Notes under the pieces: model-generated
Database searches by the model: none
Seen by the model: only the letters and a program-made list of their open reading frames with translations
Told to the model about the DNA's origin: nothing
Translations under genes and position numbers: made by a program
Assembly: GCA_963782915.1 (NCBI GenBank)
Contig: CAWALK010000012.1
Location: 64,001 to 128,000 of the forward strand
Length of the DNA stretch: 64,000 nucleotides
Direction: 5' to 3'
Source: an uncultured archaeon
GTDB lineage: Archaea; Thermoproteota; Bathyarchaeia; Bathyarchaeales; Bathycorpusculaceae
In this document: positions 19,070 to 64,000 of the stretch, in pieces
Layout: every line of letters begins with the position of its first letter
How positions within the stretch are numbered: position 1 is the first letter of the stretch

Positions 19070-20249
19070 TTATTCTTTCTTGGCACACTCAAGAGCTTTC
19101 TTGAGTATCTCTGCCTTGTCGCATCTTTCCCATGGGAATTCGACGTCGTCTCGACCGAAGTGGCCGAAGCATGCGGTTTTCTTGTAGATTGGTCTTAGCA
19201 GGTTGAGTGTGTCGATGATTCCGCGTGGTCTCATGTCAAAGTTGGCTTTGACGAGTTCGAGTATTTGCTCATCTGGGAGCTTGCCTGTCTCGTATGTGTT
19301 AACTAAGCACTGAGATTGGCTGTGCGACACCGATGGCGTAGCTGATTTGGACTTCGCATTGCTCTGCTAAGCCTGAAGCAACTACGTTTTTGGCGATGTA
19401 ACGTGCCATGTAGCAGCCGCTGCGGTCAACTTTTGAGGGGTCTTTGCCGCTGAAGCATCCGCCGCCGTGGCTTCCAACTCCGCCGTATGTGTCAACGATG
19501 ATTTTTCTGCCTGTTAAGCCGGAGTCTGCGAGGGTTCCGCCGATGACGAATCTGCCTGTGCCGTTAATGACATAATTTACGTCTTCTGATAACAGGTTTG
19601 CTGGGATAACGTATTTGATTACTTTTTCGATGATTTGCTTCTTTAGAACTGCATCTTCGACTGATCCGTTGTTTTGTGCGGCAATAACTACTGCTTTGAC
19701 GCATTTTGGTTTGCCGTTTTCGTATTCAACGGTGACTTGGGATTTGCAGTCTGGACGTAGATATGGCATAGTGCCGTTGTGGCGGAGTTCTGCTAATCTT
19801 TTTACTAGTCTGTGAGATAGCAGAATTGGCAGTGGCATGAGTTCTTTGGTTTCATTGCTTGCGAAACCGAAAACCATACCTTGGTCGCCAGCGCCCTGTT
19901 CTTTGCCGTTAGTTGCGTCAACACCCATGGCGATGTCTGGGGACTGCTCAGTTAAGGAAACAAGGATACCGCAGGTTTCCCAGTCTAAGCCGTCTTTGGC
20001 ATTGTCGAAACCGATTTCTTTTAGTGTATTTCGTACGATGCTTGGGATGTTTACGTATGCACAGGTTGTGATTTGGCCTGTAATCATAACTGTTCCCTGC
20101 ATTACGAGGGTTTCGCAGTCAACGTGTGCTTTGGTGTCGTGGGAGAATATGGCGTCTAGGACGCTGTCAGAGATTTGGTCTGCAACTTTGTCTGGGTGAC
20201 CTTCTCCGACTGATTCGGATGTGAACAAATATTTTCCGTTTCTTCTCAT
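19070..20249 (-). CDS. metK: Bacterial/eukaryal-type S-adenosylmethionine synthetase; +1 frameshift near 19303
   Basis: [50 protein letters not shown], after the shift [16 protein letters not shown]. Confidence 0.93.
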
Positions 20250-20406
20250 TTCAGTTCTCTCTTCCGTTCGGTAAGTTGTGCTTAGCTTACTTGCCGTTTT
20301 TCTTATATGGTTTTCTGCATAAAATATTCCAATCGGAATATTGGTTGTTGGGTTAATTCTTGTTTTCCAATACTGTTTTAAGGATAAATGGGCACACAAA
20401 CAAGTG

Positions 20407-20791
20407 ATGGCTATGAAAAAAGCAGTTGTAAGCCCAGATGCGCCTAAACCCATTGGACCCTACAGTCAAGCTGTGCAAGCAGGCAATTATCTCTATGTTT
20501 CGGGGCAACTTGCTATCGACCCCAAAGAGGGCAAGCTCGTTGCCGCAGACATCGCAGTGCAAACACGTCAGGTGATGGAGAACCTCAAAGCAATCCTGAC
20601 AAGCCGCCAACTACAGCCTAAAAGACATCGTCCAAACCACAGTTTACCTCTCATCCATGACGCATTTCGAAGGCTTCAACCGTGAATACGCCAAATACTT
20701 CACTGCAGACTACCCAGCACGCGCCACAGTCGCCTGCGAACTAAAAACAGGTGCACTCCTAGAAGTTTCAGCAGTAGCCTACAAAGAGTAG
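20407..20791 (+). CDS. ridA: RidA/YjgF family enamine deaminase; +1 frameshift near 20601
   Basis: [16 protein letters not shown]; after the shift [25 protein letters not shown]. Confidence 0.88.
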
Positions 20792-20852
20792 CAGCTTTTG
20801 CTTCGATAAGTTATAAGTATCTAGCCAACGCTAAATATCAACAGGCATAACC

Positions 20853-21479
20853 ATGGCGGCATCGTTGAAAAAATTTATGCAGCAGCTTTCAGGGAAAAAA
20901 GGTCCTGGACCCTCGATGTCTTTCACGATTTTCCATGTATTCTATGCTTTGCAGCTTATGGCACAGAAGCCGATTGGAAGGAACAAGTTGGCTGAGCAAC
21001 TTAATGTTGGCGACGGCGCAATACGAACAATAATTAGCAGGTTGCGGGAGGCTGGTTTGATTGAAACCTCTAAAGCAGGCTGCAATTTAACGGAAAAAGG
21101 CAGGGATGTTTGGTGCCAGTTTGAAATGATTTTTCCCAAAGAAACCGAATTACCCAAATCCGAATTAAACCCCTGCGAATTCAACCATGCATTCTTAGTA
21201 AAGAACTGCGCCCAAAAAGTCCAGTCAGGCATCGACCAAAGAGACGCAGCAATAATTGCGGGAGCACGCACCGCTTTAGTCATTGTTTATCGCAATGGCC
21301 ACTTATGCATCGAATCCATCAGCGACGACATAGAAAAACAGTATCCAAAAGCCGCAAAACAACTTTTGGAGCAGCTTGAGCCCAAAGAAAACGATGCCAT
21401 CGTTGTGGCCGGGGCTGAATCGGCTTTGAAGGCCAAGCGTGGCGCTTTTGCCGCCAGCTGGTCACTCATCAGCGCCTAA
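20853..21479 (+). CDS. Archaeal winged-helix protein (DUF4443/DUF2111-like)
   Basis: IGRNKLAEQLNVGDGAIRTII..L; GIDQRDAAIIAGA. Confidence 0.7.
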   Translation: MAASLKKFMQQLSGKKGPGPSMSFTIFHVFYALQLMAQKPIGRNKLAEQLNVGDGAIRTIISRLREAGLIETSKAGCNLTEKGRDVWCQFEMIFPKETELPKSELNPCEFNHAFLVKNCAQKVQSGIDQRDAAIIAGARTALVIVYRNGHLCIESISDDIEKQYPKAAKQLLEQLEPKENDAIVVAGAESALKAKRGAFAASWSLISA

Positions 21480-21483
21480 AAGT

Positions 21484-22657: not shown

Positions 22658-23770
22658 TTATTGTTTTTTGAGTTGTGCGAATGCTTCTTTCTGCATTGCC
22701 TCAAAAGCCTTAGGGTCTTCACGGAGGACCTTGGGGATATAGGCGCATGCTGGATCTGAAGCGAATAAGTCGCCAGTGTAGTATTCAGCGCGTGTTCTGC
22801 ATCCACCGCAGATTTCTCGGTACTCGCATACTCCGCATCTGCCTTTGAGGTTGCTTTTGTCGCGTAGTTTAAGATGGAACTCGCTTTTCTGCAGGTCTGC
22901 CCATGCTTGGCGTAGTTTCGTTTCTTTGACGTTGCCAATGCGGTAGCCTTCGTGGAAGCCGCAGCTGCGGTAGTCGCCGTTTTCGGTGATGCCGATATAG
23001 TTGCCGCCGATGGTGCATCTGCCCAAGTAGCCTTCGTTGAACCAGTCCCAGAAGTCCACGGTGTTCTTCTGTTTCACTATGCGTGCATAGAAGGGCGCGT
23101 AAACATTGACTTTGACTTTGCCGTATAGTCTGCGTTGGATTTCGTAGATTTCGTTGAATGCAACCTCATACTGTTCGGGGGTTGGTGCGATTTCTTCCAT
23201 GTGTTCGCCTGCTCTGCCGACTGGTACAAGGTTATGGTAGACGACTGAGCGTGCATGGTACTGTTCTGCAAGGGCTGCAGTATGTGGCATTTGATGAATG
23301 TTAAACTTAGTCATGGTTGTAACTAAGCAGTCGAGTAATCCGACGCTGCTAAGCTTCTGCATAGCGTAGAGGGCTTTGTCGTAGCCGCCTTTTCGGCGTA
23401 TTTTATCGTTTGTGTCTGGTTCTCCATCGATGCTGATGGCTGTTTTAACATTATACTTTGTTAGTTTGTTGAAGCGTTCTTCATCCCAAGCGTAGCCGCT
23501 TGTGATTAAACTGACGTTTAAGCCGTGCTCTTTTTCTGCGTATTCGATGATTTCCCAGATGTCTGGGCGAATCAATGGCTCTCCGCCGCTGATTCCGAAC
23601 CATTGTGAGCCGAACTCTGCTATTTCATCAACCATATGCTTAGCTTGTTCGGTGCTTAATTCTTGGTCTTTAGCGTAATCTTTTGTGTAACTGCAATAGG
23701 TGCAAGTGCCAACACAGTTGCGGGTACATCGCCAAACAACCATAAACAAGGGGGTTGTCGTCGGATTCAT
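22658..23770 (-). CDS. Radical SAM/SPASM protein (NirJ/AhbD/PqqE-like)
   Basis: CVGTCTYC, SGGEPL, CTIG..C, CGVCEYREICGGCR..DPAC. Confidence 0.9.
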   Translation of the reverse strand: MNPTTTPLFMVVWRCTRNCVGTCTYCSYTKDYAKDQELSTEQAKHMVDEIAEFGSQWFGISGGEPLIRPDIWEIIEYAEKEHGLNVSLITSGYAWDEERFNKLTKYNVKTAISIDGEPDTNDKIRRKGGYDKALYAMQKLSSVGLLDCLVTTMTKFNIHQMPHTAALAEQYHARSVVYHNLVPVGRAGEHMEEIAPTPEQYEVAFNEIYEIQRRLYGKVKVNVYAPFYARIVKQKNTVDFWDWFNEGYLGRCTIGGNYIGITENGDYRSCGFHEGYRIGNVKETKLRQAWADLQKSEFHLKLRDKSNLKGRCGVCEYREICGGCRTRAEYYTGDLFASDPACAYIPKVLREDPKAFEAMQKEAFAQLKKQ

Positions 23771-23885: not shown

Positions 23886-24341
23886 CTACTCAGCCGCTAC
23901 ATTGGGGGCTTTACGTCTGCTCTGCAGAAAACCCTCCACAGCAAAAACAGCCATCGCCAACCCCGTAATCAACGTCAAGAGCAAAAAGAAAACTTTGAAC
24001 TCATCCGTCTCAACCCCAAAATGAATAAACAAAATCACCAACTCAACCGCCAAAATCCCTAAGAAAATCAGCGCGTAAATCCACATTTTGGGAAACACAT
24101 TGCGACCAAGCCAAATACTGCCCTTTAAGGGTGCTTTCTTTTTGACGGTGTATTCGCCGTACTCGTTTTTAGCTAAGTAACCCGCGTCTTCGAGCTTCTG
24201 CAGGTGCCTGTATGCTACGCTTGGGCTGCTCAAGTTGGCGCCTTTCATTACATCTCGGGGTCCAACTGGTTTGCCCTTTTTTGCAGCGTAGAGGTACACG
24301 TTTAGGGTTATTCCTTCAAGTTCTTGGTCTGCGGTGGTCAT
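23886..24341 (-). CDS. Membrane-anchored winged-helix regulator (2 TM); paralog of 45491-45937
   Basis: GKPVGPRDVMKGANLSSPSVAYRHLQKL + two TM helices. Confidence 0.75.
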   Translation of the reverse strand: MTTADQELEGITLNVYLYAAKKGKPVGPRDVMKGANLSSPSVAYRHLQKLEDAGYLAKNEYGEYTVKKKAPLKGSIWLGRNVFPKMWIYALIFLGILAVELVILFIHFGVETDEFKVFFLLLTLITGLAMAVFAVEGFLQSRRKAPNVAAE

Positions 24342-24632: not shown

Positions 24633-25743
24633 ATGAGTAACGAAACCTCAAATGAACTAGTTGTAAATCCAGCACCACACGTACATGGCACAATGACTAA
24701 GAATCGCATGATGCAATACACATTCTTTGCAATTCTAGCTACAATCGTTGTTTCCGCAGCACTTTGGTCTCAAGTCACAACCCCCTCAGGATGGAACTTA
24801 GGCTTAACAGTTGCTATCTGTGCACTCATATCAACCGGCATCGCCGTCGTATTAGACTTCCTCATCGGCAGAGTAGCCTCTGACAGCGAAGTCAACACTT
24901 GGTCCGCAGCAGTCTTCGGCTTAATCGTCACAGCCTGTTATACCCTCGGTATTCCCTCAATGGCATCAAGAAGTTGGAACCCCCGCTGAAGCACCCCTTG
25001 CATTCTTCTACGTCGCACTAATCTCCGTTATCGGTATGGTCGTTTTCAAGAAAGTTATGAGCTTAGCAGGCAGAAAACTCGTAAACCCCGCAGCAGCAGC
25101 CAAATTTCTCGTTCTACTACCAACCATCGGTACAACCCTCATTGCAGTTGACCACCTGAACACTGGACTGCTGGGCGTTCCCGCACTAGCGCGTGGAATC
25201 GGCTCATCAACCATCGTTGGTGGCAACGGTTTAGCAGCATTCGGTTCCTACCTACAAGGATGCTACGGCTTACCCACAGCATCAAGCTCAGCCAGTATCG
25301 AATCAATCATGCTTCTCACGAAATTCCACGGATGGACCGCCGGCGCATGCAGCATCGCAGTTATCATCGCAGGCATTGCATTATTCGCATTAGGACGCAA
25401 ATACTTCAAATGGAAAATCACCGCAAGCTACCTCATCGCAATGGCAGTCTTATCATTGATATTCTCAGTTGCATTCGGCGACGCAGACTTAACCACAAGA
25501 TTACTCTTCGAACTCTTCGTCGGCAGCTCAATATTCATGGCGTTCTTCATGGCAACTGATCCAGCGACAACACCATTCAGCGGAATCGGACAAATCATCT
25601 TCGGCGTCGGACTCGCAGTTTTGACCATCGTGATACAAACCTTTATGGGTTTCTTCGGCGGCTCTTTGCTAGCATTGTTGATCATGAACCTAACAGTTCC
25701 ACTTATTGACAAAATACGTATCAACAAACCCTTTGGGAGATGA
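24633..25743 (+). CDS. rnfD: RnfD/NqrB-family membrane subunit; +1 frameshift near 24969
   Basis: PAPHVH, SAAVFGLI, after the shift GRKLVNPAAA, AFFMATDPATTP, LLIMNLTVPLID. Confidence 0.85.
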
Positions 25744-27038
25744 ATATAATGGCAAACTTTGTACATATACCAGAACAAAAAGAAGTCGCAAGAAAAACAC
25801 CCATTGAAGTCTTCCCAGACCCCAAAATCGCAGTCGTCTTAACCAACCAGCAATCGGGAGCAACAAACCTCCCACTGGTTAAAGTCGGCGACACCGTAGC
25901 CATCGGTCAAAAAATTGCAGACTCCAAAGAACGCGTATCAGCACCAGTCCACAGCCCAATATCCGGAAAAGTCATCAAAATCGAAAACGCCTACAACAGC
26001 TGCTTTGAAGCACCAACCGAAGCCATCTACATCGAAAACGACGGCAAAAAAACCAAAGACACAAGCATCAAACCCATCACAGAAGCACAATTAGCCACAA
26101 CCAAAAACGAAGACTTACTGAAAATCATCCGTGAAGCAGGCATCATCGGCATGGGCGGCGCAGGCTTCCCAACCAGCATCAAACTCGCAGTACCCGCAGA
26201 CAAAAAAATCAAGTACCTACTCGTAAACGGCGCAGAAGGAGAACCATACGACACAGCAGACGAACGCATAATGGTCGAAAAAACCGCAAACTTAGTCCGC
26301 GGTGTCCGCGTTGTACGCAAATTGCTCGGTAACCCAAAAGTCATCGTTGTAACAAAAGAAAGCAAAGTTGAAGCAGTACCAAAACTCAAAGAAGCATTCG
26401 CAAAAGAACCAGACACAGAAGTCCGCGCATTACACTTAACCTACCAGCAAGGCGACGCAGCCATGATGCAAAAAGCAGTCTTAGGCTACGAAACCCCCGC
26501 AGGTAAACGCAGCTACGAAATGGGCACCATCGTACAAAACGTCGCAACCATCAACGCCATCGCAAACGCAGTCTTCGAAGGTGAACCACTCATAACCAGA
26601 GTAACCACCCTCAACGGCGACCTCGCAAAACCAAAGAACCTACTAGTGAAAATCGGCACCCCAATCAGCGAAATCCTCAACGCAAACAGCATTAACGTCT
26701 CAGACATCGGCTCAGTCGTAGTCGGCGGAGTCATGATGGGCACAGCACTACAAACCCCAGATGCACCAATCACAAAACGAACCTCAAGCATAATCTACTT
26801 CGCAAAAAGCAAAGCAAAGAAAGGCCAAAAACCAACTGCATGCATACACTGCGGAAGATGCGTCGACGCATGTCCAGCACGTCTCCAACCAGTAGCAATC
26901 TACAATGCTGTCATAAAAGGCGACTTTGAGAAAGCTGAGAAACTTTGGGCAAAAGACTGCATTATGTGCGGAACATGCTCATACGTCTGTCCAGCCAGAG
27001 TACCGCTCGCATCTAACATAAAGATGGCACGCCAATAA
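25740..27038 (+). CDS. rnfC: RnfC/RsxC NADH-FMN-2x[4Fe-4S] subunit
   Basis: VKVGD.V..GQ, HSPISG, GIIGMGGAGFPT, NGAEGEPY, GGVMMG, CIHCGRCVDACP, CIMCGTCSYVCP; ATGA overlap with rnfD. Confidence 0.92.
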   Translation: MNIMANFVHIPEQKEVARKTPIEVFPDPKIAVVLTNQQSGATNLPLVKVGDTVAIGQKIADSKERVSAPVHSPISGKVIKIENAYNSCFEAPTEAIYIENDGKKTKDTSIKPITEAQLATTKNEDLLKIIREAGIIGMGGAGFPTSIKLAVPADKKIKYLLVNGAEGEPYDTADERIMVEKTANLVRGVRVVRKLLGNPKVIVVTKESKVEAVPKLKEAFAKEPDTEVRALHLTYQQGDAAMMQKAVLGYETPAGKRSYEMGTIVQNVATINAIANAVFEGEPLITRVTTLNGDLAKPKNLLVKIGTPISEILNANSINVSDIGSVVVGGVMMGTALQTPDAPITKRTSSIIYFAKSKAKKGQKPTACIHCGRCVDACPARLQPVAIYNAVIKGDFEKAEKLWAKDCIMCGTCSYVCPARVPLASNIKMARQ

Positions 27039-27228: not shown

Positions 27229-27882
27229 TTGGCAGAAAATAAATTTAAATTATCTGACATATTCGGCGGCATTATCATACCGATTATTCTTGTGCTACTC
27301 ATCTATGTCTTTGCGGTCTATCTTAACGTTGGCGGAGAGTTCCATCTTCTTGGCGATCAGAACATCGTTGCTATTATTCTTGTCTCAGGCTTTGCTCAAA
27401 TGATTATTCTTGGTATCCCATTGGTTTTAGGCTTGCTTTGGAATAAATGGGCCGGCGGAGCAGCAGGCTTCGTTATGGGTGGTCTCTATTACGTGGCAAG
27501 TGCAGGTCAGTATACAGCAAGTTATGCAACATATTCTCAGGGGCTTGTCAATTACAACTTCTTTGGCGACATTAGCATGCTTTTCTATCTGGTTAACGCG
27601 GTCATCATCGGCTACATGGCAGGCGCAATTAACAACGGATCCATGAACTTTAAACGAATGCTCCTGGCAGGTTTAACTGCTGCTATGGTTACAGCTGTTA
27701 TCCAAGCGTACATGAACTATTACGTCTCGCTTCCAGTAGCTAGAGGTATGGCTCAGGCGGCTTGGTTAGATGTGCCAAACGCGATATTGGTGAACTTTGT
27801 ACCAAGTATTGCTTTAGGTGTAATCGTTCCGATTCTTGCTAAAGTAATGACCTGGTATGGAATTTATCCGCAGAAACACTAA
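27229..27882 (+). CDS. 6-TM membrane protein, ECF S-component-like (copy 1)
   Basis: 217 aa; LGLLWNKWAGGAAGF..G and NAVIIGYMAG helices resemble S-components. Confidence 0.6.
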   Translation: MAENKFKLSDIFGGIIIPIILVLLIYVFAVYLNVGGEFHLLGDQNIVAIILVSGFAQMIILGIPLVLGLLWNKWAGGAAGFVMGGLYYVASAGQYTASYATYSQGLVNYNFFGDISMLFYLVNAVIIGYMAGAINNGSMNFKRMLLAGLTAAMVTAVIQAYMNYYVSLPVARGMAQAAWLDVPNAILVNFVPSIALGVIVPILAKVMTWYGIYPQKH

Positions 27883-30310: not shown

Positions 30311-30409
30311 TGAAATATATCCCCTTGATTGTACGTTAAAACCGTCTGGTAACGTAATAAAGTTTCCGCAAAAACGTTTAACACAAGAAAGGGGCGAAAA
30401 ATTTGCTGT

Positions 30410-44160: not shown

Positions 44161-44211
44161 GCAACGCACTTCTCTGCACAACTACGCTGATTCTTTGATT
44201 AATACTTTGCA

Positions 44212-54640: not shown

Positions 54641-55178
54641 TTCCCTCTTCCTCCATCAACCGTGCAATTTCTTTTTCTACTTGCAAGTCAGCCTTATAGT
54701 GTGCATTATACAAGTTGACGACTTTGTATAACCAGTACACTCCGCCGACACCTAACGTCACAATTGTAATCAGTACATATGTTGTTTGCGGTATTGTTTG
54801 GGTCATGAAGACTCGCTCGGGCAGGGCAGCGGCGAGATAAGCGTCTTCCGCTTTCTCATGTGTGGCTAGGTCTTTGGTTATGAGGTAGATGATGATGAAT
54901 GCTGGGATGATTAGGATGACGCTTGCAGCCCATAATTTGGCATTGCGTTGCTTGAAAGGCTGGTTCGGTGCTGGTGGCTCTTTGCCCTTACTTCTCATAT
55001 ACTCAGCCAGTTTCCGCTCAATTTCCGCCTCTTTCTGAAGATGCCTGTTTCTACCGTCAACCAATCGGTGAAACATCGGAAAAAAAGCCAAACCAAAAGT
55101 AACGATGGCGCCAAGAAACCACATGGAAAACCATATTTTACGGTCAACAGATGCCTTGGTGTTCATTGTGGTTTGCAT
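54624..55178 (-). CDS. Membrane protein with duplicated DUF4234-like motif, overlapping the cobD start
   Basis: IVTFGLAF.P and IVTLGVGGVYWLYK..N.H repeats. Confidence 0.6.
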   Translation of the reverse strand: MQTTMNTKASVDRKIWFSMWFLGAIVTFGLAFFPMFHRLVDGRNRHLQKEAEIERKLAEYMRSKGKEPPAPNQPFKQRNAKLWAASVILIIPAFIIIYLITKDLATHEKAEDAYLAAALPERVFMTQTIPQTTYVLITIVTLGVGGVYWLYKVVNLYNAHYKADLQVEKEIARLMEEEGNVKHM

Positions 55179-55261
55179 TAAGTTCAAACTTTCCCGTTCA
55201 ATTGCTTACAAGGTTGGGGGAGCCAAACTTTATAAGGTCTTCCATTGGAGGTTTACATAAA

Positions 55262-55960
55262 ATGAGCCGACGTCAAATGGTGCTATCCATTATAATTCCC
55301 GTCTATAACGAGGAATTGACGATAGGCAACATTATCGACCGCACCACAGTGGCGGCGAAAAAACTTGGTTTGCCCTTTGAGATTATTGTGGTTAATGACT
55401 TATCTTATGACAAGTCCCTTGAGGTTGCTTGCCGACGCAAGGTTAGGGTGTTGAGTTTAAAGGAGCATTTGGGCAAAGGCTATGCGTTGCGGGCGGGGTT
55501 TGCTCAGGTCAGAGGCGACATAGTCGTCACGATTGACTCGGATGGGTCGCATTGGCCAGAAGAACTCAACGAAGTTTTAGCGCCCGTACTCTCAGGCAAA
55601 GCCGACATGGTCATCGGTTCACGATACATGAACCATAAACGGGTGGAAGCACGTAAACTAAACAAATTCGGCGTTCGCATATTCAACTACCTCATCCAAA
55701 TGTTCACGGGCGTCGCCATAACCGATTCCCAATCAGGCTACAGAGCCATGAAACGCGAAGTCCTATCCAAGCAAAAGCTAAAGTCAGGCGAGTACGAGAT
55801 AGAATCTGAAATGCTCGTTAAAACCGCTAAAGCTGGCTTCCGAGTAGCTGAGGTTCCCATCACATTTGAGCAACGCACCTACGGCCATTCAGGCGTAGAC
55901 CCAATGGTTGATGGCTCAAAAATTTTGCTATCGATAGTCATGGCGTACTTGAAGGCGTAA
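55262..55960 (+). CDS. GT2 glycosyltransferase (DPM1-like)
   Basis: SIIIPVYNEE, GKGYAL, DSDG, VIGSR, DSQSGYRA. Confidence 0.9.
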   Translation: MSRRQMVLSIIIPVYNEELTIGNIIDRTTVAAKKLGLPFEIIVVNDLSYDKSLEVACRRKVRVLSLKEHLGKGYALRAGFAQVRGDIVVTIDSDGSHWPEELNEVLAPVLSGKADMVIGSRYMNHKRVEARKLNKFGVRIFNYLIQMFTGVAITDSQSGYRAMKREVLSKQKLKSGEYEIESEMLVKTAKAGFRVAEVPITFEQRTYGHSGVDPMVDGSKILLSIVMAYLKA

Positions 55961-55964
55961 AGCG

Positions 55965-56954
55965 ATGGCCCTCGACGCTTGTCCCAAAGTCTCAATCATA
56001 GTAGCGTCCTATAACAGCGCTGACACCATCGGGGAATGCCTCAAATCTATTCTGGCCTTGGATTACCCAGCGGGTTACATTGAAGTTATCGTTATGGACG
56101 GCGTCAGTAAGGATGCCACAGTTAAAATCGCTGGGCAGTTCCCCATCAAAGTTGTTTCTATCCAGCTTAATGCGCCAGCCGCTTACAATTATGCCCAGAA
56201 AATCGCTGTTCACCCTATCTTAGGTTTTATCGATGCAGACGCCAAAGTGGAACGGGATTGGCTAAAGAAGCTTGTACCTCATCTCAGCGAACCCCAAGTG
56301 GCAGGCGTCAGCGGCAGCATCGAAACCTGGAACCAAGATAATCAGTGGGCTCGGAGCATCGGTTATGAACTAAAAAACCGATACCGCCGAATCGGCAAAT
56401 ACACCGGGCGCATCGCCACCATGAATTTGTTGCTAAAGAAAGCGGTGGTTGAAGAGGCGGGTGGTTGGGATGAAAAGCTGCCCAGCCAATACGACACGGA
56501 TTTTGGGTTCCGAATGGCGTCCAAAGGCTATAAAATCGCCTATGAACCATCAGCGGTTTGTTACCATTTCAATCGCCCAACTTTGAAGGCGTATTATCGC
56601 CAGCAACTGCAGTATGGCAAGAACACGCTCAAGCTGTACTTTAAGCATGGGCACTTGGCTAAGGGCGACGAGATTACCGATGTGGGTATGAATATTCAGC
56701 CCTTATTGCTGTTGACGGTTGTTGGGTTGTTTATTGTGGGCATTATTCCTTTGTTGAGGCTGCTTTGGGTCGGTTCAGCGCTGATTTTATTGGGAATGTT
56801 TGTTTACTTTGTCTATTCCGCAGCTAAAATATCCGCCAAATTCCGTGACTGGTCCGCAATGCGACTGGTCGTACTCTATTATGTGCGCTCTGCCGCATGG
56901 TTCGTCGGCGCAGTCACCACCACGTTGCGTTATCTAACAAGGAGAAACAACTGA
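55965..56954 (+). CDS. GT2 glycosyltransferase with C-terminal TM helices
   Basis: VSIIV..YN, FIDAD, GGWDE, RQQLQYG. Confidence 0.88.
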   Translation: MALDACPKVSIIVASYNSADTIGECLKSILALDYPAGYIEVIVMDGVSKDATVKIAGQFPIKVVSIQLNAPAAYNYAQKIAVHPILGFIDADAKVERDWLKKLVPHLSEPQVAGVSGSIETWNQDNQWARSIGYELKNRYRRIGKYTGRIATMNLLLKKAVVEEAGGWDEKLPSQYDTDFGFRMASKGYKIAYEPSAVCYHFNRPTLKAYYRQQLQYGKNTLKLYFKHGHLAKGDEITDVGMNIQPLLLLTVVGLFIVGIIPLLRLLWVGSALILLGMFVYFVYSAAKISAKFRDWSAMRLVVLYYVRSAAWFVGAVTTTLRYLTRRNN

Positions 56955-58147
56955 TGACCAAAGTCTGCTTCGTCTCACCCGAATACTGGCCGCTAACAGG
57001 CGGCACAGGCAGCTACGTCTACTACCTCAGCAACGAACTCCTCAAAAACGGCTACAACATCCACGTTGTAACCGGCAGCAACCAAACCCAAGACATCCAC
57101 GTAAACCCCCAACTCGACGTCTCCTTCCTAAAAAGCCCCAAAATGCCCGCCGTCAAATCATTCATCCTCGCAGGCAACAGCAACCGTAAACTCCAAAGTA
57201 TCAAAAAAACCGCCAAAATAGACATCATGCATCCCCAGTTGCCGCTTACACCTAACTTTGCGGTTCCCCCCAACTACGGCAAAACGCTTGTCTGCACCGT
57301 CCACTCCACATGGAAGGGCGAAGCAGAAGCCATCAGAGGCGAACCCTTTATGCGGTTAAACGCTAATGAGAAAGTCCTCGTCAGCTTAAACCCGATGCTG
57401 CGTTTCTTTGAGGAAAGCATGATTCATCGAGCCCGAAAAGTTATAGCTGTTAGCGAATTCACCAAGTACGAACTCACAAAATACTACAAAATCCCCGCTC
57501 GCAAAATCAAGGTTATTCACAACGGCGTCGATATCCACAAATTCCAGCCCGCCGCTGACAAACGTAAAATCAAAGCAGAATTGGGCTTCAACCCTGACGA
57601 CATCGCCATAGTTTCTGTTGGGCGACTCTATGCACGCAAGGGCCTCTTTACGTTGATCGAGAGCATGCCTGCCGTCGTCAAGCGATTCCCCAACGCCAAA
57701 TTCATCATATCCGGCAAGGGGCAGAGCGACGAAATGAATAAACTTATCGCTCACGCCACAAAACTGGGCGTAATTAACAACATAGTCTTCACTGGCTATT
57801 ACCCCGACAAGAAACTGCCCAAACTCTACCAAGCTGCCGACGTATTTGCCTTCTCAACCTTCTATGAGCATCATCCCTTTGCCGTATTGGAGGCGCTCTC
57901 AACAGGGTTGCCCGTGGTGACGACCACCGTTGGGGGGATTCCAGAGACGATTGAGAGTGGCAAGAACGGATTCTTGGTCAAGCCTTTCGATGAGAAAGCC
58001 TTCGCGGACAGAATCCTCTACTTACTAGAGCACAGAGCCTTTGCATCTGAGATGGGTGCAGCCGCAAGGAAAACCGTTGTTGAGCAACTGGACTGGCGCA
58101 TAGTAGTTAAGGATGCAATGAAAGTCTACGATCAAGCTCTCAGTTAA
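56954..58147 (+). CDS. GT4 glycosyltransferase
   Basis: GG...YVYYL, IHNGVD, VGRL..RKG, E.HPFAVLEALSTG.P; TGATG overlap. Confidence 0.9.
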   Translation: MTKVCFVSPEYWPLTGGTGSYVYYLSNELLKNGYNIHVVTGSNQTQDIHVNPQLDVSFLKSPKMPAVKSFILAGNSNRKLQSIKKTAKIDIMHPQLPLTPNFAVPPNYGKTLVCTVHSTWKGEAEAIRGEPFMRLNANEKVLVSLNPMLRFFEESMIHRARKVIAVSEFTKYELTKYYKIPARKIKVIHNGVDIHKFQPAADKRKIKAELGFNPDDIAIVSVGRLYARKGLFTLIESMPAVVKRFPNAKFIISGKGQSDEMNKLIAHATKLGVINNIVFTGYYPDKKLPKLYQAADVFAFSTFYEHHPFAVLEALSTGLPVVTTTVGGIPETIESGKNGFLVKPFDEKAFADRILYLLEHRAFASEMGAAARKTVVEQLDWRIVVKDAMKVYDQALS

Positions 58148-58211
58148 CCAACGATACTCACCTGTTTGTCAATCTTTAAAAGAGAAACCACCTACCTTTA
58201 CTTTGATTAAA

Positions 58212-58505
58212 ATGCAGACCATAGAGAAGCTAAAAGCGACTTTGGCTTCACATAAAGAGGAACTAGAAAATAACTATAAAGTAAAAGAAATTGGAATCTT
58301 CGGTTCCTACGTCAGACATGAACAGAACAAAAACAGCGACGTAGACGTTTTAGTTACCTTTACTGAAACACCCGACCTCTTCCAGTTTGTAGAACTTGAA
58401 AATTACTTAAGTGACCTTTTAGGGGTTAAAGTTGACCTCGTCATGAAGGAAGGAATTAAACCTCGCCTCAAAGAGAGGATTCTTAGCGAGGCAGTCTACG
58501 TTTGA
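58212..58505 (+). CDS. mntA: MNT minimal nucleotidyltransferase antitoxin
   Basis: IFGSYVRHEQNKNSDVD (GSX10DXD). Confidence 0.88.
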   Translation: MQTIEKLKATLASHKEELENNYKVKEIGIFGSYVRHEQNKNSDVDVLVTFTETPDLFQFVELENYLSDLLGVKVDLVMKEGIKPRLKERILSEAVYV

Positions 58506-58843
58506 GGGACTTCCAAGTCTACATAGAAGACATAATCGACGCCATCGACAGTATCGAAACCTACACTAAAGACTTAACCTACACTGACTTTGTCAGCGAT
58601 AAAAAAACCGTTGATGCGGTAATTAGGAATTTTGAGATCATCGGTGAAGCAACAAAGCAATTACCGCTGTCAGCAAGGCAAGGGTGCCCTAATGTACCTT
58701 GGAGAGAGATGGCGGGGATGCGCGACAAATTAATCCATGGATACTTTGGCGTTCAACTAGATGTTGTTTGGAAAACCATTAAAGAGCGCCTGCCTACAGT
58801 GCGACTTTTGATGGTTGAAGTTTTGGCAAAAATGAAAGAGTAG
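58502..58843 (+). CDS. hepT: HEPN (DUF86) RNase toxin
   Basis: EIIGEA, RDKLIHGY (RX4HXY); 4 nt overlap with MNT. Confidence 0.88.
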   Translation: MRDFQVYIEDIIDAIDSIETYTKDLTYTDFVSDKKTVDAVIRNFEIIGEATKQLPLSARQGCPNVPWREMAGMRDKLIHGYFGVQLDVVWKTIKERLPTVRLLMVEVLAKMKE

Positions 58844-58850: not shown

Positions 58851-59804
58851 CTAAGCTATCTGCGTTGGTTCTTTTCGGTAGGTTTGAGTTACCCTCTGGA
58901 ACAGGTGCACGATGTCAAGCGAGCAGAAGAAGAATTTTGTCAGGTATTCGTGTTGGTAGATCATCATTTGGGCTTTTACGGGTAGGTCGATTCTGGGTGG
59001 TTCAAAGCGGTGCTCGACTTCTTTGACGGGTAAGCCTTCGACTTGGATTGCGTCGCCTTCGAATCCGGTTTTGTCTGCGATATATTTGAGGTAAGTCTGT
59101 TTCCAATCCAGCATCATTACTTTGGCGGCGGTGATGTCTACTGCAAGGGCGTCGTTGCCTGTTAGGAACAGGTCCATTTTGACGGGTTTGCCCTTTGTGG
59201 GTCCGTTGCCTTCGATGCCTATGCGTGCATCCATGATTGTGAGCGCCGGTTTGAAAAGAGTGTATAAGCGGTAGAAGACTTCTGGCAGGTAAGGATGTAG
59301 GTAGATGCGTCGGTTGCTGGGTATGCATCCGAACAAGTTTTTGATGGCGCCGCTGTAAGCCATGAATTCATGCGTCTTCATCAAAGGCAGGTCGACGACG
59401 GCGTCGGCGTCTATGATGGTTTTGGGTAGGTATAGCCGTTTTAGTGGCGAATTGGTTTGGAATTTGACTTCGACCACTTTGTCTTCAGAGAGGTTGATGA
59501 CTTCTCCGCCTGCCGCTTTAACAGCATCCTGAACGCCAGTTTTCTCAAACGCTGTCCAGCAGGGATAGTTAAAACCGTTAGATTCGCCCACGACGACTTC
59601 GCTGTTGCCATCGCGGAGTAACTCGACGACTTGGCGCATGACTTCGGGACAGGTAACTACACCCGGTAAGTATTCGGGATGGCTGAGGTTGGGTTTAATG
59701 TAAATCCGCTTTTTCCCACGAAGCCCCGCTTTAGCAACCGCCTCTTTAATGATGCCGCTAATGTCCTCTTCGGCACGATAAATCTTAACCGCATTAGCTG
59801 CCAT
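58851..59804 (-). CDS. DUF362 family protein
   Basis: IKPNL, T.PEV, LPLMKTH, GAIKNLFG, GNGP, DALAVD. Confidence 0.85.
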   Translation of the reverse strand: MAANAVKIYRAEEDISGIIKEAVAKAGLRGKKRIYIKPNLSHPEYLPGVVTCPEVMRQVVELLRDGNSEVVVGESNGFNYPCWTAFEKTGVQDAVKAAGGEVINLSEDKVVEVKFQTNSPLKRLYLPKTIIDADAVVDLPLMKTHEFMAYSGAIKNLFGCIPSNRRIYLHPYLPEVFYRLYTLFKPALTIMDARIGIEGNGPTKGKPVKMDLFLTGNDALAVDITAAKVMMLDWKQTYLKYIADKTGFEGDAIQVEGLPVKEVEHRFEPPRIDLPVKAQMMIYQHEYLTKFFFCSLDIVHLFQRVTQTYRKEPTQIA

Positions 59805-61236
59805 TGGCGATTTTCACTCCATTAAGACAGCCGGGATCACCGTTTAAGGTGTCACCGTTATGGTAAGCAGCAGAGCGTGCTCGGCATCCGCCGCAAATGA
59901 ACTTGTAATCGCATTTACTGCAGGAGCCTTTGAGGTTGGCTCGGTTGCGGAAAGCATTGAAAAGTGGCGCATTAAGCCAGATGTCTTTGAATGTACGTTC
60001 TTTGAGGCTGCCCACATTTTCGGGTAAGAAAACGCAGGGGCGAACGTCGCCTTGTGGTGAAATTGCGCAGTAGAGTCTGCCTGCTCCGCATCCGCCGATG
60101 AATTCGCCTAGTGGGACGGCTTTTTTGGTGACTTTGACTGTTTGCATGTGGGCTAATGCCATGGTGACTTCGCCGGTACCTGAATCACCCTGACATTGAG
60201 CTGCTACACGCGCCAATTGGGGTGCCGTGGCGAGGATGGTGGTTTTGCACCCCGACGACATACGGTTAAGGAGGTACCTCATGACTTCCTCTCGTTCCTG
60301 TGGTGAGAGGTCTTGGTCCGCGTGGGCTTTGCCGCGTCCAGCGGGGATGAAGTTGAAGTAGGTGAAGCGTTCAACGTGGAGCTGCTCAGCCAAATCGATG
60401 ATTGCCGGGAGTTCCGCCATGTTGTTTTTGCCCACGGTGGTGGCTATGCAGGCGCATATGTCTGCGTCAATGCAGTTTTTCAGCCCTGCCACAGCTTTGT
60501 CATATGCTCCGGGAACGCCTCGGAACTCATCATGGGTTTTAGCTGTTGCCCCATCGATGCTGATGTCAACATAGTTAACGCCTGATTCTTTGAGTTTAAC
60601 TGCGTTTTCTTTGGTTAGTAGGGTGCCGTTTGAGGCTAGTGAAATGTAGAGACCTTTGTCTGAGGCATACCGTGCGACTTGGAAGAAGTCCTTTCGGGTA
60701 ATGGGTTCGCCTCCGCTAAACGCCAACGCCGTAACGTGAGCCTCCGCTAGTTGGTCAACGACTGCTAACGCTTGTTCGGTGGTTAACTCGTCGGCATCTG
60801 GTTCGCCGCTGTTGGAGTAGCAGTGTTTGCAGCGGAGATTGCATTTGTGTGTGAAATCCCAAACTATAAGAAACGGCGCTACAAGTGACATGGGTTTTTT
60901 GATGCCATAATGCTCGAAAGATTCAACTAAGTTGAGGACCGCATTGCGTGCATATCGGTCTGTAAGTAGCTTCTCGACTTTTGCCCGCTTGAAACCCAAC
61001 GCTCGCCGTAGGAACTCGATCCAGAAGGCGATGATCTGCGAGTACAAACCGCTGCATTTATCGCAGTGCCGATCGGTTTTGCCGCCATAGTCATCCAACG
61101 CAGCCTCCAACACAGTTCGGCCGCAAGCAGGACACTTTTTGAGGGAAAGCTGGAGCATCTTTTTGGTCATTGGCATAGAGACGATGCTGTTCCAGAATGT
61201 ATCGTAGCTGAGGATGCTCATTGCGGGTTTCTCCAA
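59794..61236 (-). CDS. Radical SAM/SPASM protein with N-terminal Cys-pair extension (possibly GMGT-synthase-like)
   Basis: CPAC..CDKC, APFLIVWDFTHKCNLRCKHCY, FIGGCGAGRLYC..PC, CSKCDYKFICGGCRAR. Confidence 0.88.
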   Translation of the reverse strand: MEKPAMSILSYDTFWNSIVSMPMTKKMLQLSLKKCPACGRTVLEAALDDYGGKTDRHCDKCSGLYSQIIAFWIEFLRRALGFKRAKVEKLLTDRYARNAVLNLVESFEHYGIKKPMSLVAPFLIVWDFTHKCNLRCKHCYSNSGEPDADELTTEQALAVVDQLAEAHVTALAFSGGEPITRKDFFQVARYASDKGLYISLASNGTLLTKENAVKLKESGVNYVDISIDGATAKTHDEFRGVPGAYDKAVAGLKNCIDADICACIATTVGKNNMAELPAIIDLAEQLHVERFTYFNFIPAGRGKAHADQDLSPQEREEVMRYLLNRMSSGCKTTILATAPQLARVAAQCQGDSGTGEVTMALAHMQTVKVTKKAVPLGEFIGGCGAGRLYCAISPQGDVRPCVFLPENVGSLKERTFKDIWLNAPLFNAFRNRANLKGSCSKCDYKFICGGCRARSAAYHNGDTLNGDPGCLNGVKIANGS

Positions 61237-62322: not shown

Positions 62323-62616
62323 CTATTCAGTGTTCTCTACAGGTTGAGCTTCAGCCGCTGTATTCAAAACCTGCTCAATCAGGTATTCACTGAGGTCAGT
62401 GACGCATTGACCGAAGTTTTTGGCGTGTTTAGTCAAGCGGCAATTAAAAACATGCAGTTCTATGGCTTTTCCCATGGCTGATGCATCTGGGATAACTAAA
62501 ATTTCGGTTCCGCATCGGCAATGGATAACTGGTAGAGTCTGGGTTTTGGTGTCATGGCTCGGTGGGTTATGCGTTTTGTGGTTTGGTTCTTTAAAATTTT
62601 GTTCTACTTCAACCAA
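62323..62616 (-). CDS. Small Cys/His metal-binding hypothetical protein (paralog 1)
   Basis: LPVIHCRCG.EILV.PDA.AMGKAI..HV..CR.TKH.KN...C. Confidence 0.7.
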   Translation of the reverse strand: MVEVEQNFKEPNHKTHNPPSHDTKTQTLPVIHCRCGTEILVIPDASAMGKAIELHVFNCRLTKHAKNFGQCVTDLSEYLIEQVLNTAAEAQPVENTE

Positions 62617-62725
62617 GCTCCTACTAGACTAGTCGCTTAATGCTTGATTGGATATACGGTTTTGTTGTAGGTGCATGGCAGCAACAATGCTATATTAATG
62701 GGTGCAAGAAATTGATGGTTTCTTT

Positions 62726-62968
62726 CTAAAGTTCAGTTTCGGCACTGAAATCTAGAACTTGCCTAATTAAAAACTCACTCAAACTCGCGATGCATTTTGT
62801 AACGTTTTTTGAGTGTTTAGTTATGCGGCAGCCTTCAACATGGGCATCTATAGCTTTACCCATAGCTTTAGCGTCAGGAAGAACAAGAATTTCAGCTCCA
62901 CACCTGCAATGGATAACTGGCAAACTCGAGGACTCAACAACAAATTGATACGGGTCTTGAGTTACCAT
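62726..62968 (-). CDS. Small Cys/His metal-binding hypothetical protein (paralog 2)
   Basis: Same conserved core as 62323-62616. Confidence 0.7.
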   Translation of the reverse strand: MVTQDPYQFVVESSSLPVIHCRCGAEILVLPDAKAMGKAIDAHVEGCRITKHSKNVTKCIASLSEFLIRQVLDFSAETEL

Positions 62969-63133
62969 TTTAGAATGACTTTTAATTCAATCACGCTCCT
63001 TAACAAGGACGTTGCTTTCTTGAATATTAATATAGGGTATGACTGCTCAGTATGATAAGTCTGTACAACAGTACCACTATTTAGAAAGGTGTAAAGGTCC
63101 TCTCAAACGGCAAGTATGCAAGCCGCTAAATGT

Positions 63134-63754
63134 TTAACGCTTCACTGTCTTCATGAAATCTTCTGCGACTTCAAAATCCTTCGTCGTATTCACGTTTAAT
63201 ACAACTTGGGTTTCCTCGGTGATTATCGCTGCTGTCTCAATCTTGCCCTCACCCAAAACTTTGGCGCCATTAATAACGTTCACACCTGAAACCGCGTACC
63301 AGACACCCTTATACTCATCCGTGGAGGAAATGGATAAGCCTAAATCTTGTCTGGTCTTAATCGGTACAAACACCGCCAAAAAATCTTTTCCGCAAACCTC
63401 AAACTCGCCAACTACCCGATCCAAAATCGGACCTGTAATGGCGGGAACATCAGATGGCATCGTTAAAACTGGACCCATCCAACCCAATTTAGTAATCGCC
63501 TGCTTCAAATCGTCATGGTAACCTTTAGCGTCTGTACGCACAAAATTCCAACCCATGCTTCTGCAATGCTCTTCCGTTTTGGGTGTATTGGAGCTGGTGA
63601 TGACGTAGAATTCGCTGACTTTTTTGGCGTTCAACACGGCTTCTGCTACCCAATCCAGCAGGGGCTTCCCTAGAAACGGCAACATCGGCTTCTCGGTGGG
63701 CAAACCCATTCGGCTGCCTCTGCCGCCAGCCATAATCAAAGCGGGAACCATCAT
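63134..63754 (-). CDS. cobY: GTP:adenosylcobinamide-phosphate guanylyltransferase
   Basis: IMAGGRGSRM..EKP, GY..DL, PSDVP, GVNVI, LNVNT..D; ATGA overlap with cobS. Confidence 0.88.
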   Translation of the reverse strand: MMVPALIMAGGRGSRMGLPTEKPMLPFLGKPLLDWVAEAVLNAKKVSEFYVITSSNTPKTEEHCRSMGWNFVRTDAKGYHDDLKQAITKLGWMGPVLTMPSDVPAITGPILDRVVGEFEVCGKDFLAVFVPIKTRQDLGLSISSTDEYKGVWYAVSGVNVINGAKVLGEGKIETAAIITEETQVVLNVNTTKDFEVAEDFMKTVKR

Positions 63755-64000
63755 AGCGCCATCACCATCAACACCACTGCAAACAGGATTAGTGCAACAG
63801 CTCTTGCAACTTCGTTGGTTGCCCCAATCATATCTCCGCTAACTCCACCGAACACTTTGTTTGAGACATTATTCATCACAAACGCCACTGGAATACTAAC
63901 AAACACCAAAGCTACTGCAACCAGAGCCAAGAGTGGGGAAGCAGTGAAATAAACCACTGGGAAAACAATCAACGCAGAAAGCACATACGCCACATAATTT
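63751..64000 (-). CDS. cobS: Cobalamin synthase CobS (3' part; truncated by window edge)
   Basis: FGGVSGDMIGA.NE C-terminal signature, TM helices. Confidence 0.85.
   Translation of the reverse strand, partial: NYVAYVLSALIVFPVVYFTASPLLALVAVALVFVSIPVAFVMNNVSNKVFGGVSGDMIGATNEVARAVALILFAVVLMVMAL

Follow-up and report, generated by a model that had tools for sequence, protein, structure and literature searches.

A conserved genomic island of radical SAM genes with a second set of cobamide genes in Bathyarchaeia, possibly concerned with tetraether lipids

Introduction

The closest described systems to the locus reported here are the archaeal genes that modify glycerol dialkyl glycerol tetraether (GDGT) lipids, which the accessible sections of PMC11214058 and of the preprint bioRxiv 10.1101/2025.10.20.683597 exemplify by the gms-gmm-grs cluster of T. 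guaymasensis, by Tes and by the Ted-Hgs genes of a bathyarchaeon. In those sections of PMC11214058, Gms, the glycerol monoalkyl glycerol tetraether (GMGT) synthase, is an AhbD homolog with an N-terminal extension of 100 amino acids (aa) that forms a lipid-binding domain (COG4001), and 307 Gmm and 188 Gms homologs are counted in Bathyarchaeota, with several Gmm2-clade copies in many genomes. The corresponding part of the preprint identifies a B12-binding radical S-adenosylmethionine (SAM) enzyme of a bathyarchaeon, a Gmm homolog, as a tetraether desaturase. The present analysis concerns a 64,000-nt stretch (the window) of contig CAWALK010000012.1 (C12) of an uncultured archaeon of the Bathyarchaeia, in which nine radical SAM (rSAM) genes are interleaved with genes for cobamide assembly.

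In soils, peat and sediments, Bathyarchaeia rank among the most abundant archaea; none is in pure culture. Knowledge of the source organisms and enzymes of many modified tetraether lipids, used as proxies for climate and environment, is only partial. For the Bathy-6 group, the available text of PMC11697101 gives 7–20 B12-binding rSAM genes per genome, many rSAM proteins of COG0535 and many proteins with pyrroloquinoline quinone (PQQ) domains, and places B12 genes at three loci, with salvage by cbiZ.

Clustering of radical SAM genes

The window corresponds to C12:64001-128000 of a genome of 3.28 Mb in 25 contigs that is 93.5 % complete; positions are those of the window unless a contig is named. 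Window proteins were scanned with Pfam and NCBIfam profiles, and NCBIfam scores were read against the curated cut-offs. An initial annotation, made from the sequence alone, had counted nine rSAM genes in 39 kb. PF04055 was found in exactly nine window proteins, at coordinates agreeing within about 30 nt, with one CX3CX2C motif in each of the nine. The classes assigned to them also held. Five are class B enzymes with a B12-binding domain (PF02310): B12_1 (30378–31832, − strand), B12_2 (38301–39806, −), B12_3 (42703–44181, −), B12_4 (45945–47468, −) and B12_5 (50904–52334, +). Their PF02310 matches have E values of 7e-14 to 7e-25, and cobamide binding is predicted. Three carry PF13186, namely SPASM1 (22658–23770, −), SPASM2 (34408–35508, −) and SPASM3 (59794–61236, −), and one carries PF06969 (HemN_C), the single-copy HemN-like class C enzyme (29003–30310, −). 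The companion genes listed with them were all recovered: a methyltransferase, a SnoaL protein, an Fe-S aldo/keto reductase (AKR), Amidohydro_3, DUF362, three glycosyltransferases (GTs), cbiB, cobD, cobY, cobS, cbiZ, metK and RnfD/RnfC.

Across the genome PF04055 gave 50 matches, of which 46 exceeded the cut-off and mapped to 44 open reading frames (ORFs). Nine rSAM genes in 39 kb compare with 0.52 expected (Poisson p = 5e-9, or 4e-7 corrected for 84 windows), far above the genome average. Three further rSAM genes lie outside the window, two of them B12-binding (C12:53516-56420) and one Tes-like (C12:130465-131937), and the whole group of 12 of the 44 genes falls in 78.5 kb against 1.05 expected (p = 1.5e-9). 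It includes seven of the 11 B12-rSAM-like genes of the genome. These genes belong to a genomic island of about 90 kb, at roughly 52–142 kb of C12, the middle of which lies in the window. The class B copies are mutual paralogs (29–63 % identical), and a clade with support of 94/96 unites five of them, B12_1, B12_2 and B12_4 with the two upstream copies. Judged from these sequence comparisons, much of the rSAM density is one paralog family expanded in place.

The enzymes had been called uncharacterised, which agrees with the profile results: none of the nine reached any NCBIfam cut-off. No named class B equivalog was attained, the best ratios of score to cut-off being 259/481 bits for BchE and 226/575 for Sden_1168, with 92–139/450 for BzaD. 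The closest solved structures of the window rSAM proteins are all remote (AprD4, OxsB and TokK; PqqE and SkfB; HemN and NocN). TIGR04190, considered as a possible Grs family, was dropped, as it scored below its cut-off in a Sulfolobus control and in this genome.

Conservation and distribution of the island

Several comparison sets were used. Phyletic counts refer to one set of 201 genomes of the class (87 genera). Gene neighbourhoods comprised 80 genome loci anchored on the HemN-like gene at 75–92 % identity, that is, close relatives only, and 26 metagenome loci of at least 9 kb anchored on a 217-aa membrane protein of the window, for which the scan returned only matches of 58–80 % identity. 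Stretches from five genomes of the same genus, G014 included, were compared gene by gene, and a second family (f7, as against the home family f1) was represented by genus g27, whose HemN-like protein is about 60 % identical.

Clusters of similar size were found in three complete genomes. In G014, 12 of 41 rSAM matches lie at 274,969–339,971; in G003, 14 of 43 lie within about 62 kb spanning the origin; and in G115, of family f7, 13 of 39 lie at 422,556–482,402. Homologs of B12_4 (E <= 1e-30) numbered 5–16 per genome in all 18 same-genus genomes sampled and 0–4 in 12 genomes from other families of the same order. The five same-genus stretches held orthologs of all nine window rSAM genes at 66–93 % identity, and the gene order from cobY to cbiZ in G014 is the same as here.

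The core order across the 80 loci runs SPASM2, a PQQ-like propeller (in some), B12_1 and the HemN-like gene; the 217-aa membrane protein, RnfC and RnfD; and a winged helix-turn-helix (wHTH) gene with SPASM1. Placed matches were obtained, several of the loci being short, for B12_1 in 71 loci, RnfD in 70, the membrane protein in 67, RnfC in 63 and SPASM2 and SPASM1 in 62 each; the duplicate 217-aa copy, used as a query, gave 26 further placed matches. The same arrangement was repeated in most of the 26 metagenome loci.

In family f7 the order is thoroughly shuffled and the same genes are still together: mtrH, three copies of a 301-aa protein, cbiZ, a CN-hydrolase, the 828-aa propeller, SPASM1, the HemN-like gene, a B12-rSAM/AKR pair, another B12-rSAM, cbiB, Amidohydro_3, SPASM2, three more B12-rSAM genes, RnfD and the 217-aa membrane protein. 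An rSAM density equal to the genome average together with shuffled neighbours had been named as evidence against a functional grouping. The density is well above that average; shuffling does occur in f7, where membership is retained. The co-location of rSAM and cobamide genes thus survives rearrangement, and retention of the gene set despite the shuffled order argues for selection on co-location. Clustering, conservation and the domain families involved are established by these comparisons.

Several components share a narrow distribution. The HemN-like gene was found in 27 of the 201 class genomes, the RnfD-like gene in 24, the 217-aa membrane protein in 25, orthologs of a UbiA-type prenyltransferase described below (UbiA2; 43 % identity or more) in 25 and the island-type cbiB (57 % identity or more) in 25. 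All five occur in the same six genera (g1, g14, g17, g18, g19 and g27), the lone exception being a 33 %-identical HemN-like match in a seventh genus. In the searched genomes the island is therefore a feature of six genera of Bathy-6-type Bathyarchaeia in two families. Amidohydro_3 (122 of 201 genomes) and the SPASM3 family (101 of 201 genomes, 54 of 87 genera) are widespread. A compact version of about 20 kb was seen in metagenome locus L208, with two GT2 genes (GT2b and GT2a), the small membrane protein, cobD, the HemN-like gene, SPASM2, Amidohydro_3, the 217-aa protein, B12_4, cbiB, cobY, cobS and cobT; RnfD, RnfC and SPASM1 were not seen in it.

Possible links to tetraether lipids

Just past the window end, 1–4 kb beyond it and divergent from cobS1, lies an operon of a GalE-like short-chain dehydrogenase/reductase (SDR), a UbiA prenyltransferase and an rSAM gene. 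The best models for this prenyltransferase (UbiA2) are digeranylgeranylglyceryl phosphate (DGGGP) synthases, at 164–172 bits compared with 180–243 for the copy at C11:88189. The rSAM protein (C12:130465-131937, its gene starting 2.5 kb after the end of the window) scores 460 bits on the Tes model NF045702 (cut-off 450) and carries the Tes-type N-terminal zinc ribbon (PF23545, 8.5e-17); the canonical Tes of the genome, at C22:110549, scores 670.7 bits. This operon is retained beside cobS1-cobY in G014 and G003, and in f7 it occurs together with cobS, cobY, cobD, the GT block and the DUF362-SPASM3 pair.

SPASM3 (480 aa) matches the AhbD model TIGR04545 with 301.6 bits over residues 123–471 (model positions 1–336). 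The cut-off is 500, and a score below it is as expected for a relative that is not AhbD. The 122 residues before this core are conserved across the class and in 430 database proteins, the best 120 of which, as listed in the region search, are each at least 70 % identical. The extension was modelled as a separate domain of six helices (pLDDT 63–82). An AhbD-like core, an N-terminal extension folding as its own domain and a length of at least 400 aa together make up the architecture published for Gms. A Foldseek search with the SPASM3 model returned only generic SPASM enzymes (PqqE, SuiB, SkfB and anSME). To our knowledge, no Gms structure exists.

Relatives that lack the island provided a further link. 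At two of six Gms-like loci in such genomes, a B12-rSAM gene lies 63–89 nt away on the same strand, encoding a protein 40–42 % identical to the island copies, and these Gms-adjacent proteins branch next to the island clade.

Cobamide genes

The window holds cbiZ, encoding an adenosylcobinamide amidohydrolase (6272–7304, −; PF01955 on both halves of a split ORF), which lies within the island in f7, and predicted genes for nucleotide-loop assembly. The island-type cbiB (44212–45270, −) reaches its model (NF002281, 275 bits, cut-off 273). The Pfam domains of all four enzymes are present, and the other three score below their cut-offs: the threonine-phosphate decarboxylase-like cobD (53519–54640, −; TIGR01140, 282 bits, cut-off 290.6), the cobY-like nucleotidyltransferase (63134–63754, −; PF12804; NF045495, 96 bits, cut-off 250) and cobS1 (3' part at 63751–64000, −, continuing beyond the window; TIGR00317, 69.7 bits, cut-off 110).

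Elsewhere in the genome, a second cbiB at C1:65639 is 39 % identical to the island copy and stronger on NF002281 (332 vs 275 bits), a second cobD at C1:64497 is 34 % identical to that of the island, and cobS2 (152 bits on TIGR00317) stands next to the canonical cobT at C12:136-138 kb, the only cobT position in this genome. Paralogy of the cobamide genes is thus established, and within this genome the sequences of the island cobD, cobY and cobS identify them as second, divergent paralogs. cbiB occurs twice in most island-bearing genomes (all 11 of g1 and all five of g27), and the 28 cbiB-carrying genomes of other genera have one each; among the 201 class genomes the island-type cbiB is confined to island-bearing genera. 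The initial annotation had regarded these genes as a cofactor supply interleaved with the rSAM genes. Their presence and interleaving stand, and the idea of a general supply pathway gives way to that of a second divergent set.

An amidase-type CN-hydrolase gene and an asparagine-synthase-like gene lie beside cbiZ. A family of soluble 301-aa proteins that matches neither Pfam nor NCBIfam models (7573–8478 and C12:61359-62306) is always near cbiZ, with three copies beside it in f7 (L121, L124 and L128), and may be a further component of cobamide salvage. For the anaerobic pathway to 5,6-dimethylbenzimidazole, no ThiC/BzaF (PF01964) was found in the genome, and BzaD scores are those given above; the canonical anaerobic route to the lower ligand is thereby excluded. 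Rfam models at gathering thresholds gave no match in the window, and hence no cobalamin or SAM riboswitch.

SAM synthetase and the RnfD-RnfC operon

Two supposed supply functions did not hold up. The bacterial-type metK (19070–20453, −; TIGR01034, 466 bits, cut-off 309) has a reading frame that extends to 19070, like its unsplit counterpart in G014, and probably a true start near 20249. It had been read as an added source of SAM. Neither an archaeal-type methionine adenosyltransferase (PF01941) nor a second metK was found in the genome, so the window copy is its only SAM synthetase and a housekeeping gene. The f7 stretches examined showed no metK next to the island.

The second was an Rnf complex. 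The RnfD/NqrB-like membrane protein (24633–25743, +; PF03116, 110 bits) is the only copy in the genome, and RnfC (25740–27038, +), with an NADH/FMN domain and two [4Fe-4S] clusters, passes TIGR01945 with 413 bits (cut-off 246). No match to RnfA/E (PF02508) was found in the 93.5 %-complete genome, and neither RnfB nor RnfG was recognized in the operon. Among the 66 loci where RnfC was matched, it is near full length in no more than 24; the other 42 mostly retain residues ~355–432, the 2x[4Fe-4S] end, with a few fragments, and the five matches in more distant genomes (three from f7, two from other genera of f1) are likewise all short. The conserved core of the operon is thus the RnfD-like protein, the ferredoxin domain and a third, transporter-like protein, and not an Rnf complex.

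This third component is the 217-aa membrane protein, encoded twice (27229–27882 and 28269–28922, both +) by copies that are 98 % identical and have no Pfam or NCBIfam match. The duplication is peculiar to this genome, several relatives examined having one copy. The nearest named atlas cluster is an energy-coupling factor (ECF) S component (0.87), which is a lead only. In a VIA search with the structural model (pLDDT 72.8), nine of the top ten matches were ECF S components and the other was BtuM (Z 8.6–11.3), including PanT at 11.3, ThiT at 11.0, RibU at 10.8, BioY at 8.9 and BtuM with hydroxycobalamin at 8.8; Z values in this range can arise by chance for helical bundles, and the best Foldseek E value was 0.07. 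Genes for EcfT and two ABC ATPases are present at C12:139951-142402. Since the third protein looks like an ECF S component, vitamin uptake and reduction, as suggested by the model, would be at least as likely a role for the operon as the supply of low-potential electrons to rSAM enzymes. Contigs from two metatranscriptome runs of one study span 24.6–29.2 kb (RnfD, RnfC and the S-component-like gene) at 88 % likeness or more, which records presence in an RNA library and not a level of expression.

Proposed function of the island

One or more tailoring pathways, for a tetraether lipid, a cofactor or a surface protein or peptide, had been proposed for this region together with cosubstrate supply. 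The lipid option has gained support from the operon of the second Tes (Tes2) and UbiA2 and from the Gms-like SPASM3, and the supply part is corrected as set out above. It is quite possible, and the reading that we tentatively prefer, that the island serves to modify tetraether lipids and is equipped with a line of its own for capturing and assembling cobamides. Its contents would then fall into three parts. The first is the group of rSAM enzymes, namely the class B family (seven island copies, five of which lie in the window), the HemN-like class C enzyme and the two short SPASM enzymes. The second, a putative membrane-lipid block, comprises the Gms-like SPASM protein, DUF362, the three GTs, the SDR, the DGGGP synthase-like UbiA and the second Tes. 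The third, a candidate private cobamide line, comprises cbiZ, the second cbiB, cobD, cobY and cobS and the operon of the RnfD-like protein, ferredoxin or RnfC, and the S-component-like protein.

From this arrangement we infer a lipid substrate and a role of the island genes in cobamide supply. The class B enzymes and their partners may modify the hydrocarbon chains of tetraethers by C-methylation, desaturation, ring formation or cross-linking, the kind of chemistry carried out by the characterized archaeal enzymes Gmm, Cgm/Pgm, Ted, Grs, Gms and Tes, and the island genes for capture, salvage and assembly of cobamides would load the class B enzymes with their cofactor.

A number of observations weigh against this reading. 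The case for kinship with proven lipid enzymes is built on architecture, on neighbourhood and on counts in the literature, not on alignment; the best models for the class B proteins are BchE, HpnJ, ApyD, PhpK and Sden_1168, all far below cut-off. No adjacent B12-rSAM gene was found at four of the six distant Gms-like loci, and the tree does not resolve around the Gms-adjacent copies at the other two. The HemN-like protein, SPASM1 and SPASM2 have no tie to lipids. The island may have been gained only once or twice among the six genera and the genomes, being related, are not independent, so that the common distribution is a weak argument for a common function; genomes with the island are also larger, and many genes may have the same distribution. 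Finally, the interleaving with cbiB, cobD, cobY, cobS and cobT in f7 and L208 fits a corrinoid substrate equally well.

Alternative explanations

That last point leads to the possibility, which we consider unlikely, that the rSAM enzymes act on a corrinoid or another tetrapyrrole, modifying the side chains, linker or lower ligand of a cobamide, while cbiZ, cbiB, cobD, cobY and cobS of the island take apart and rebuild the nucleotide loop around the altered molecule to give a second, lineage-specific corrinoid. Three f7 genomes have SPASM2, Amidohydro_3, cbiB and a B12-rSAM gene in one co-directional run, and L208 packs cobT, cobS, cobY, cbiB and cobD with B12_4, SPASM2 and the HemN-like gene in about 20 kb. 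The island cobamide genes are extra and divergent beside a canonical set, with a cbiB copy limited to island-bearing genera, and the CN-hydrolase and asparagine-synthase-like genes adjoin cbiZ. For each of the three rSAM classes, the named families that come closest act on tetrapyrroles (AhbD/NirJ, HemN/HutW and BchE), but these matches are generic and far below cut-off, BzaD and ThiC/BzaF gave no lead to the lower ligand, and the AhbA/B-like double-Lrp genes lie outside the f7 islands. Class B enzymes need cobamide in any case, so their co-location with cobamide genes would be expected without a corrinoid substrate. We know of no cobamide pathway that uses this many rSAM steps. An equally doubtful combination of the two ideas is that a private cofactor economy and an rSAM-tailored corrinoid exist alongside lineage-specific lipids: the second set of cbiZ, cbiB, cobD, cobY and cobS, with a vitamin-capturing S component coupled to an RnfD-ferredoxin reductase, would produce or alter a separate corrinoid kept for the 7–8 class B enzymes, the HemN-like and short SPASM enzymes might tailor it, and the class B enzymes would build modified tetraether lipids on a second core pathway of DGGGP synthase and Tes.

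The genes may instead have little to do with one another, an explanation that we find improbable to much the same degree. The class B enzymes would then serve several unrelated pathways, such as the use of lignin-derived or methoxylated aromatics proposed for Bathy-6, and would stand together only through local duplication and shared regulation by cobamide availability. Their mutual paralogy, with five copies in one clade, would suit such an origin, as would the variety of partners (AKR, methyltransferase, amidohydrolase and HemN-like protein) and an MtrH-type corrinoid methyltransferase within the island. The available text of PMC11697101 connects lignin, as a proposal only, with the 7–20 such genes of each Bathy-6 genome and with the PQQ-domain proteins; no aromatic-degradation genes were seen in the island, and the set has stayed together with the lipid genes through extensive shuffling. 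Maturation of a protein or peptide, in which SPASM and class B enzymes would modify the PQQ-like propellers, make their peptide cofactor or mature a ribosomally synthesized peptide that is modified post-translationally (RiPP), appears very unlikely. It could account for the 828-aa propeller gene standing divergent beside a short SPASM gene in both families, and it is consistent with PqqE being the closest solved structure to SPASM2 and with RiPP methylase models (ApyD and TIGR03975) among the class B matches; the same text names one such gene as a possible PQQ synthase. The PqqE model, however, scored only 106–123 bits against a cut-off of 381, and the second propeller gene is absent from many loci. 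Conserved stretches of intergenic DNA were gene ends or RidA, with no conserved small ORF or precursor-like segment. Dozens of propeller genes are given per Bathy-6 genome in that text, so that adjacency can arise by chance.

The radical SAM enzymes and adjoining genes

SPASM1 is a short AhbD/NirJ-like rSAM/SPASM protein of 370 aa (TIGR04545, 207 bits, cut-off 500), is 44 % identical to SPASM2 and belongs to the core genes of the 80 loci. Beside it lies a wHTH regulator with two transmembrane (TM)-like segments (23886–24341, −; weak HTH matches). A second membrane-anchored wHTH regulator (45491–45937, +) is 49 % identical to the first. Further paralogs occur at C18:111590, C18:204658, C12:194810 and C25:78136; two of the regulators are beside island rSAM genes and one is about 7 kb from a B12-rSAM gene at C18:103359. 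They could be sensors of membrane state.

For the HemN-like protein the best NCBIfam models, as bits and cut-off, are HutW (180/400), HemW (148/205) and HemN (130/325). Long matches to it had raised the idea of an insertion or intein, which was rejected, as they consist of weak matches in the neighbouring rSAM gene that had been joined on. B12_1 is co-directional with the HemN-like gene and below all NCBIfam cut-offs. Next to it is a secreted PQQ-like beta-propeller (32088–34320, −; PF13570/PF13360), split into ORFs of 506 and 283 aa, which is present only in some relatives, many loci lacking it between SPASM2 and B12_1. SPASM2 is a short rSAM/SPASM protein of 366 aa that matches PqqE, its closest solved structure, with 56.7 bits. 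Divergent from it is an 828-aa PQQ-like beta-propeller surface protein with a C-terminal TM segment (35813–38299, +), which adjoins a short SPASM gene in families f1 and f7.

Between B12_2 and B12_3 lies Amidohydro_3, a metal-dependent hydrolase (39936–41483, +; PF07969, 317 bits), which in f7 is located between SPASM2 and cbiB in the SPASM2-headed run ending with a B12-rSAM gene. B12_3, for which Sden_1168 is the best model, is co-directional with cbiB and groups with C24:126809 in the tree. B12_4 is nearest to the copies at C12:53516-56420 (49–50 % identity). A class I SAM methyltransferase (UbiE/CpaM-like; 47479–48336, +; PF08241, below NCBIfam cut-offs) is divergent from B12_4 and is followed by two tandem double-Lrp/AsnC proteins (48337–50650, −), 69 % identical to each other. 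In four of the five same-genus genomes the two correspond to a single position per genome, and neither was found in f7 islands. Their identification as the siroheme decarboxylase AhbA/B was rejected (NF040708, 37–49/140 bits; NF040707, 30–44/125 bits), Lrp/AsnC models scoring higher. B12_5, a divergent copy on a long tree branch, forms an operon with the AKR (52345–53433, +), which has a C-terminal Fe-S domain; the B12-rSAM/AKR pair also occurs in f7.

A small membrane protein (54624–55187, −) stands beside the block of glycosyltransferases, two of GT2 (55151–55960 and 55965–56954) and one of GT4 (56897–58147), all on the + strand. The block stays with cobD and DUF362-SPASM3 in f7. Between it and DUF362 is an MNT/HepT toxin-antitoxin pair (58203–58843, +), found only in G014 among the five same-genus genomes. 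The DUF362 protein (58851–59804, −; PF04015) is in an operon with SPASM3, a pair retained in f7, and the SnoaL gene lies from 61333. At 62323–62968 (−) are two small Cys-containing paralogs of 97 and 80 aa, 57 % identical, whose shared block starts LPVIHCRCG; they matched no family, and none of the five same-genus loci was found to carry them. On contig C13 of this genome (G000; 12.7 kb), the small membrane protein, MNT/HepT, DUF362 and SPASM3 are repeated at 66–85 % protein identity, and this contig is either a second copy of part of the island or from a co-binned related strain.

Frameshifts in the assembly

Five genes are split in the window: cbiZ (6883–6897), metK (19299–19306), RidA (20600–20750), RnfD (24965–25036) and the secreted propeller (33469–33608). 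The reading frame is continuous in relatives for RnfD (70 of 73 loci), cbiZ (10 of 10) and the propeller (55 of 55), and metK is a single ORF in G014. Public contigs have one base fewer at 19304/19306 (three of four runs) and at 24965 (two of four runs). As relatives are unsplit and public contigs one base shorter, the splits are probably assembly indels and not pseudogenes, and the genes are best treated as intact. The RidA/L-PSP gene (20341–20685, +), between metK and a DUF4443 gene, is probably split as well, judging only from a half-length Pfam match (PF01042, profile positions 3–61 of 121). A leader RNA considered between metK and the DUF4443 gene was rejected, the signal being the opposite-strand RidA gene under a false N-terminal extension of metK. 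What looks like a broken or frameshifted large defence gene lies at L137:15977-20000 (G000 C1:71977-76000), where three ORFs in a row match portions of the ProA/Hhe anti-phage helicase models with 380, 68 and 284 bits.

Significance

The island offers a compact and conserved list of candidates, consisting of a Gms-like enzyme, a second Tes and DGGGP synthase, and 7–8 class B paralogs with their partners, which suit direct testing in the existing Methanosarcina and Thermococcus expression systems. Its arrangement is unusual in that paralogs for cofactor assembly are physically kept beside enzymes dependent on that cofactor. Should the product be a distinct cobamide, this would bear on the cobamide ecology of anoxic soils.

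Comparison with known systems

None of the papers found in the literature search describes the island, its doubled late-cobamide genes or the paralogs of Tes and UbiA. The accessible text of PMC11697101 on Bathy-6 differs from the present account in giving gene counts and not an island, a duplicated late-cobamide set, Tes and UbiA paralogs or a Gms-like gene.

The RnfD-RnfC operon resembles the Rnf and Na+-NQR complexes in that RnfC passes TIGR01945 and the RnfD-like protein carries PF03116, and differs from them in the lack of RnfA/E, in the retention by most relatives of only the ferredoxin end of RnfC and in its S-component-like third gene. The cobamide genes belong to the enzyme families of archaeal cobinamide salvage and loop assembly (CbiZ, CbiB, CobD, CobY, CobS and CobT), and cbiB passes its cut-off. 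Unlike a canonical pathway, the island copies are a second set, 34–39 % identical to the others of the genome, with cobS1, cobY and cobD below the model cut-offs.

With the GDGT-modification clusters, as far as the accessible sections of PMC11214058 and 10.1101/2025.10.20.683597 describe them, the island shares a Gms-like SPASM enzyme, neighbouring B12-rSAM paralogs and a Tes-family gene nearby. The AttH/CrtC hydratase that is the partner of Ted was not found in this genome. The island differs further in its far higher number of rSAM genes (12–14), in a HemN-like and two short SPASM enzymes that have no lipid precedent, in a second DGGGP synthase-like UbiA and a second Tes, and in the cobamide paralogs and putative vitamin-capture module that are interleaved with its rSAM genes.

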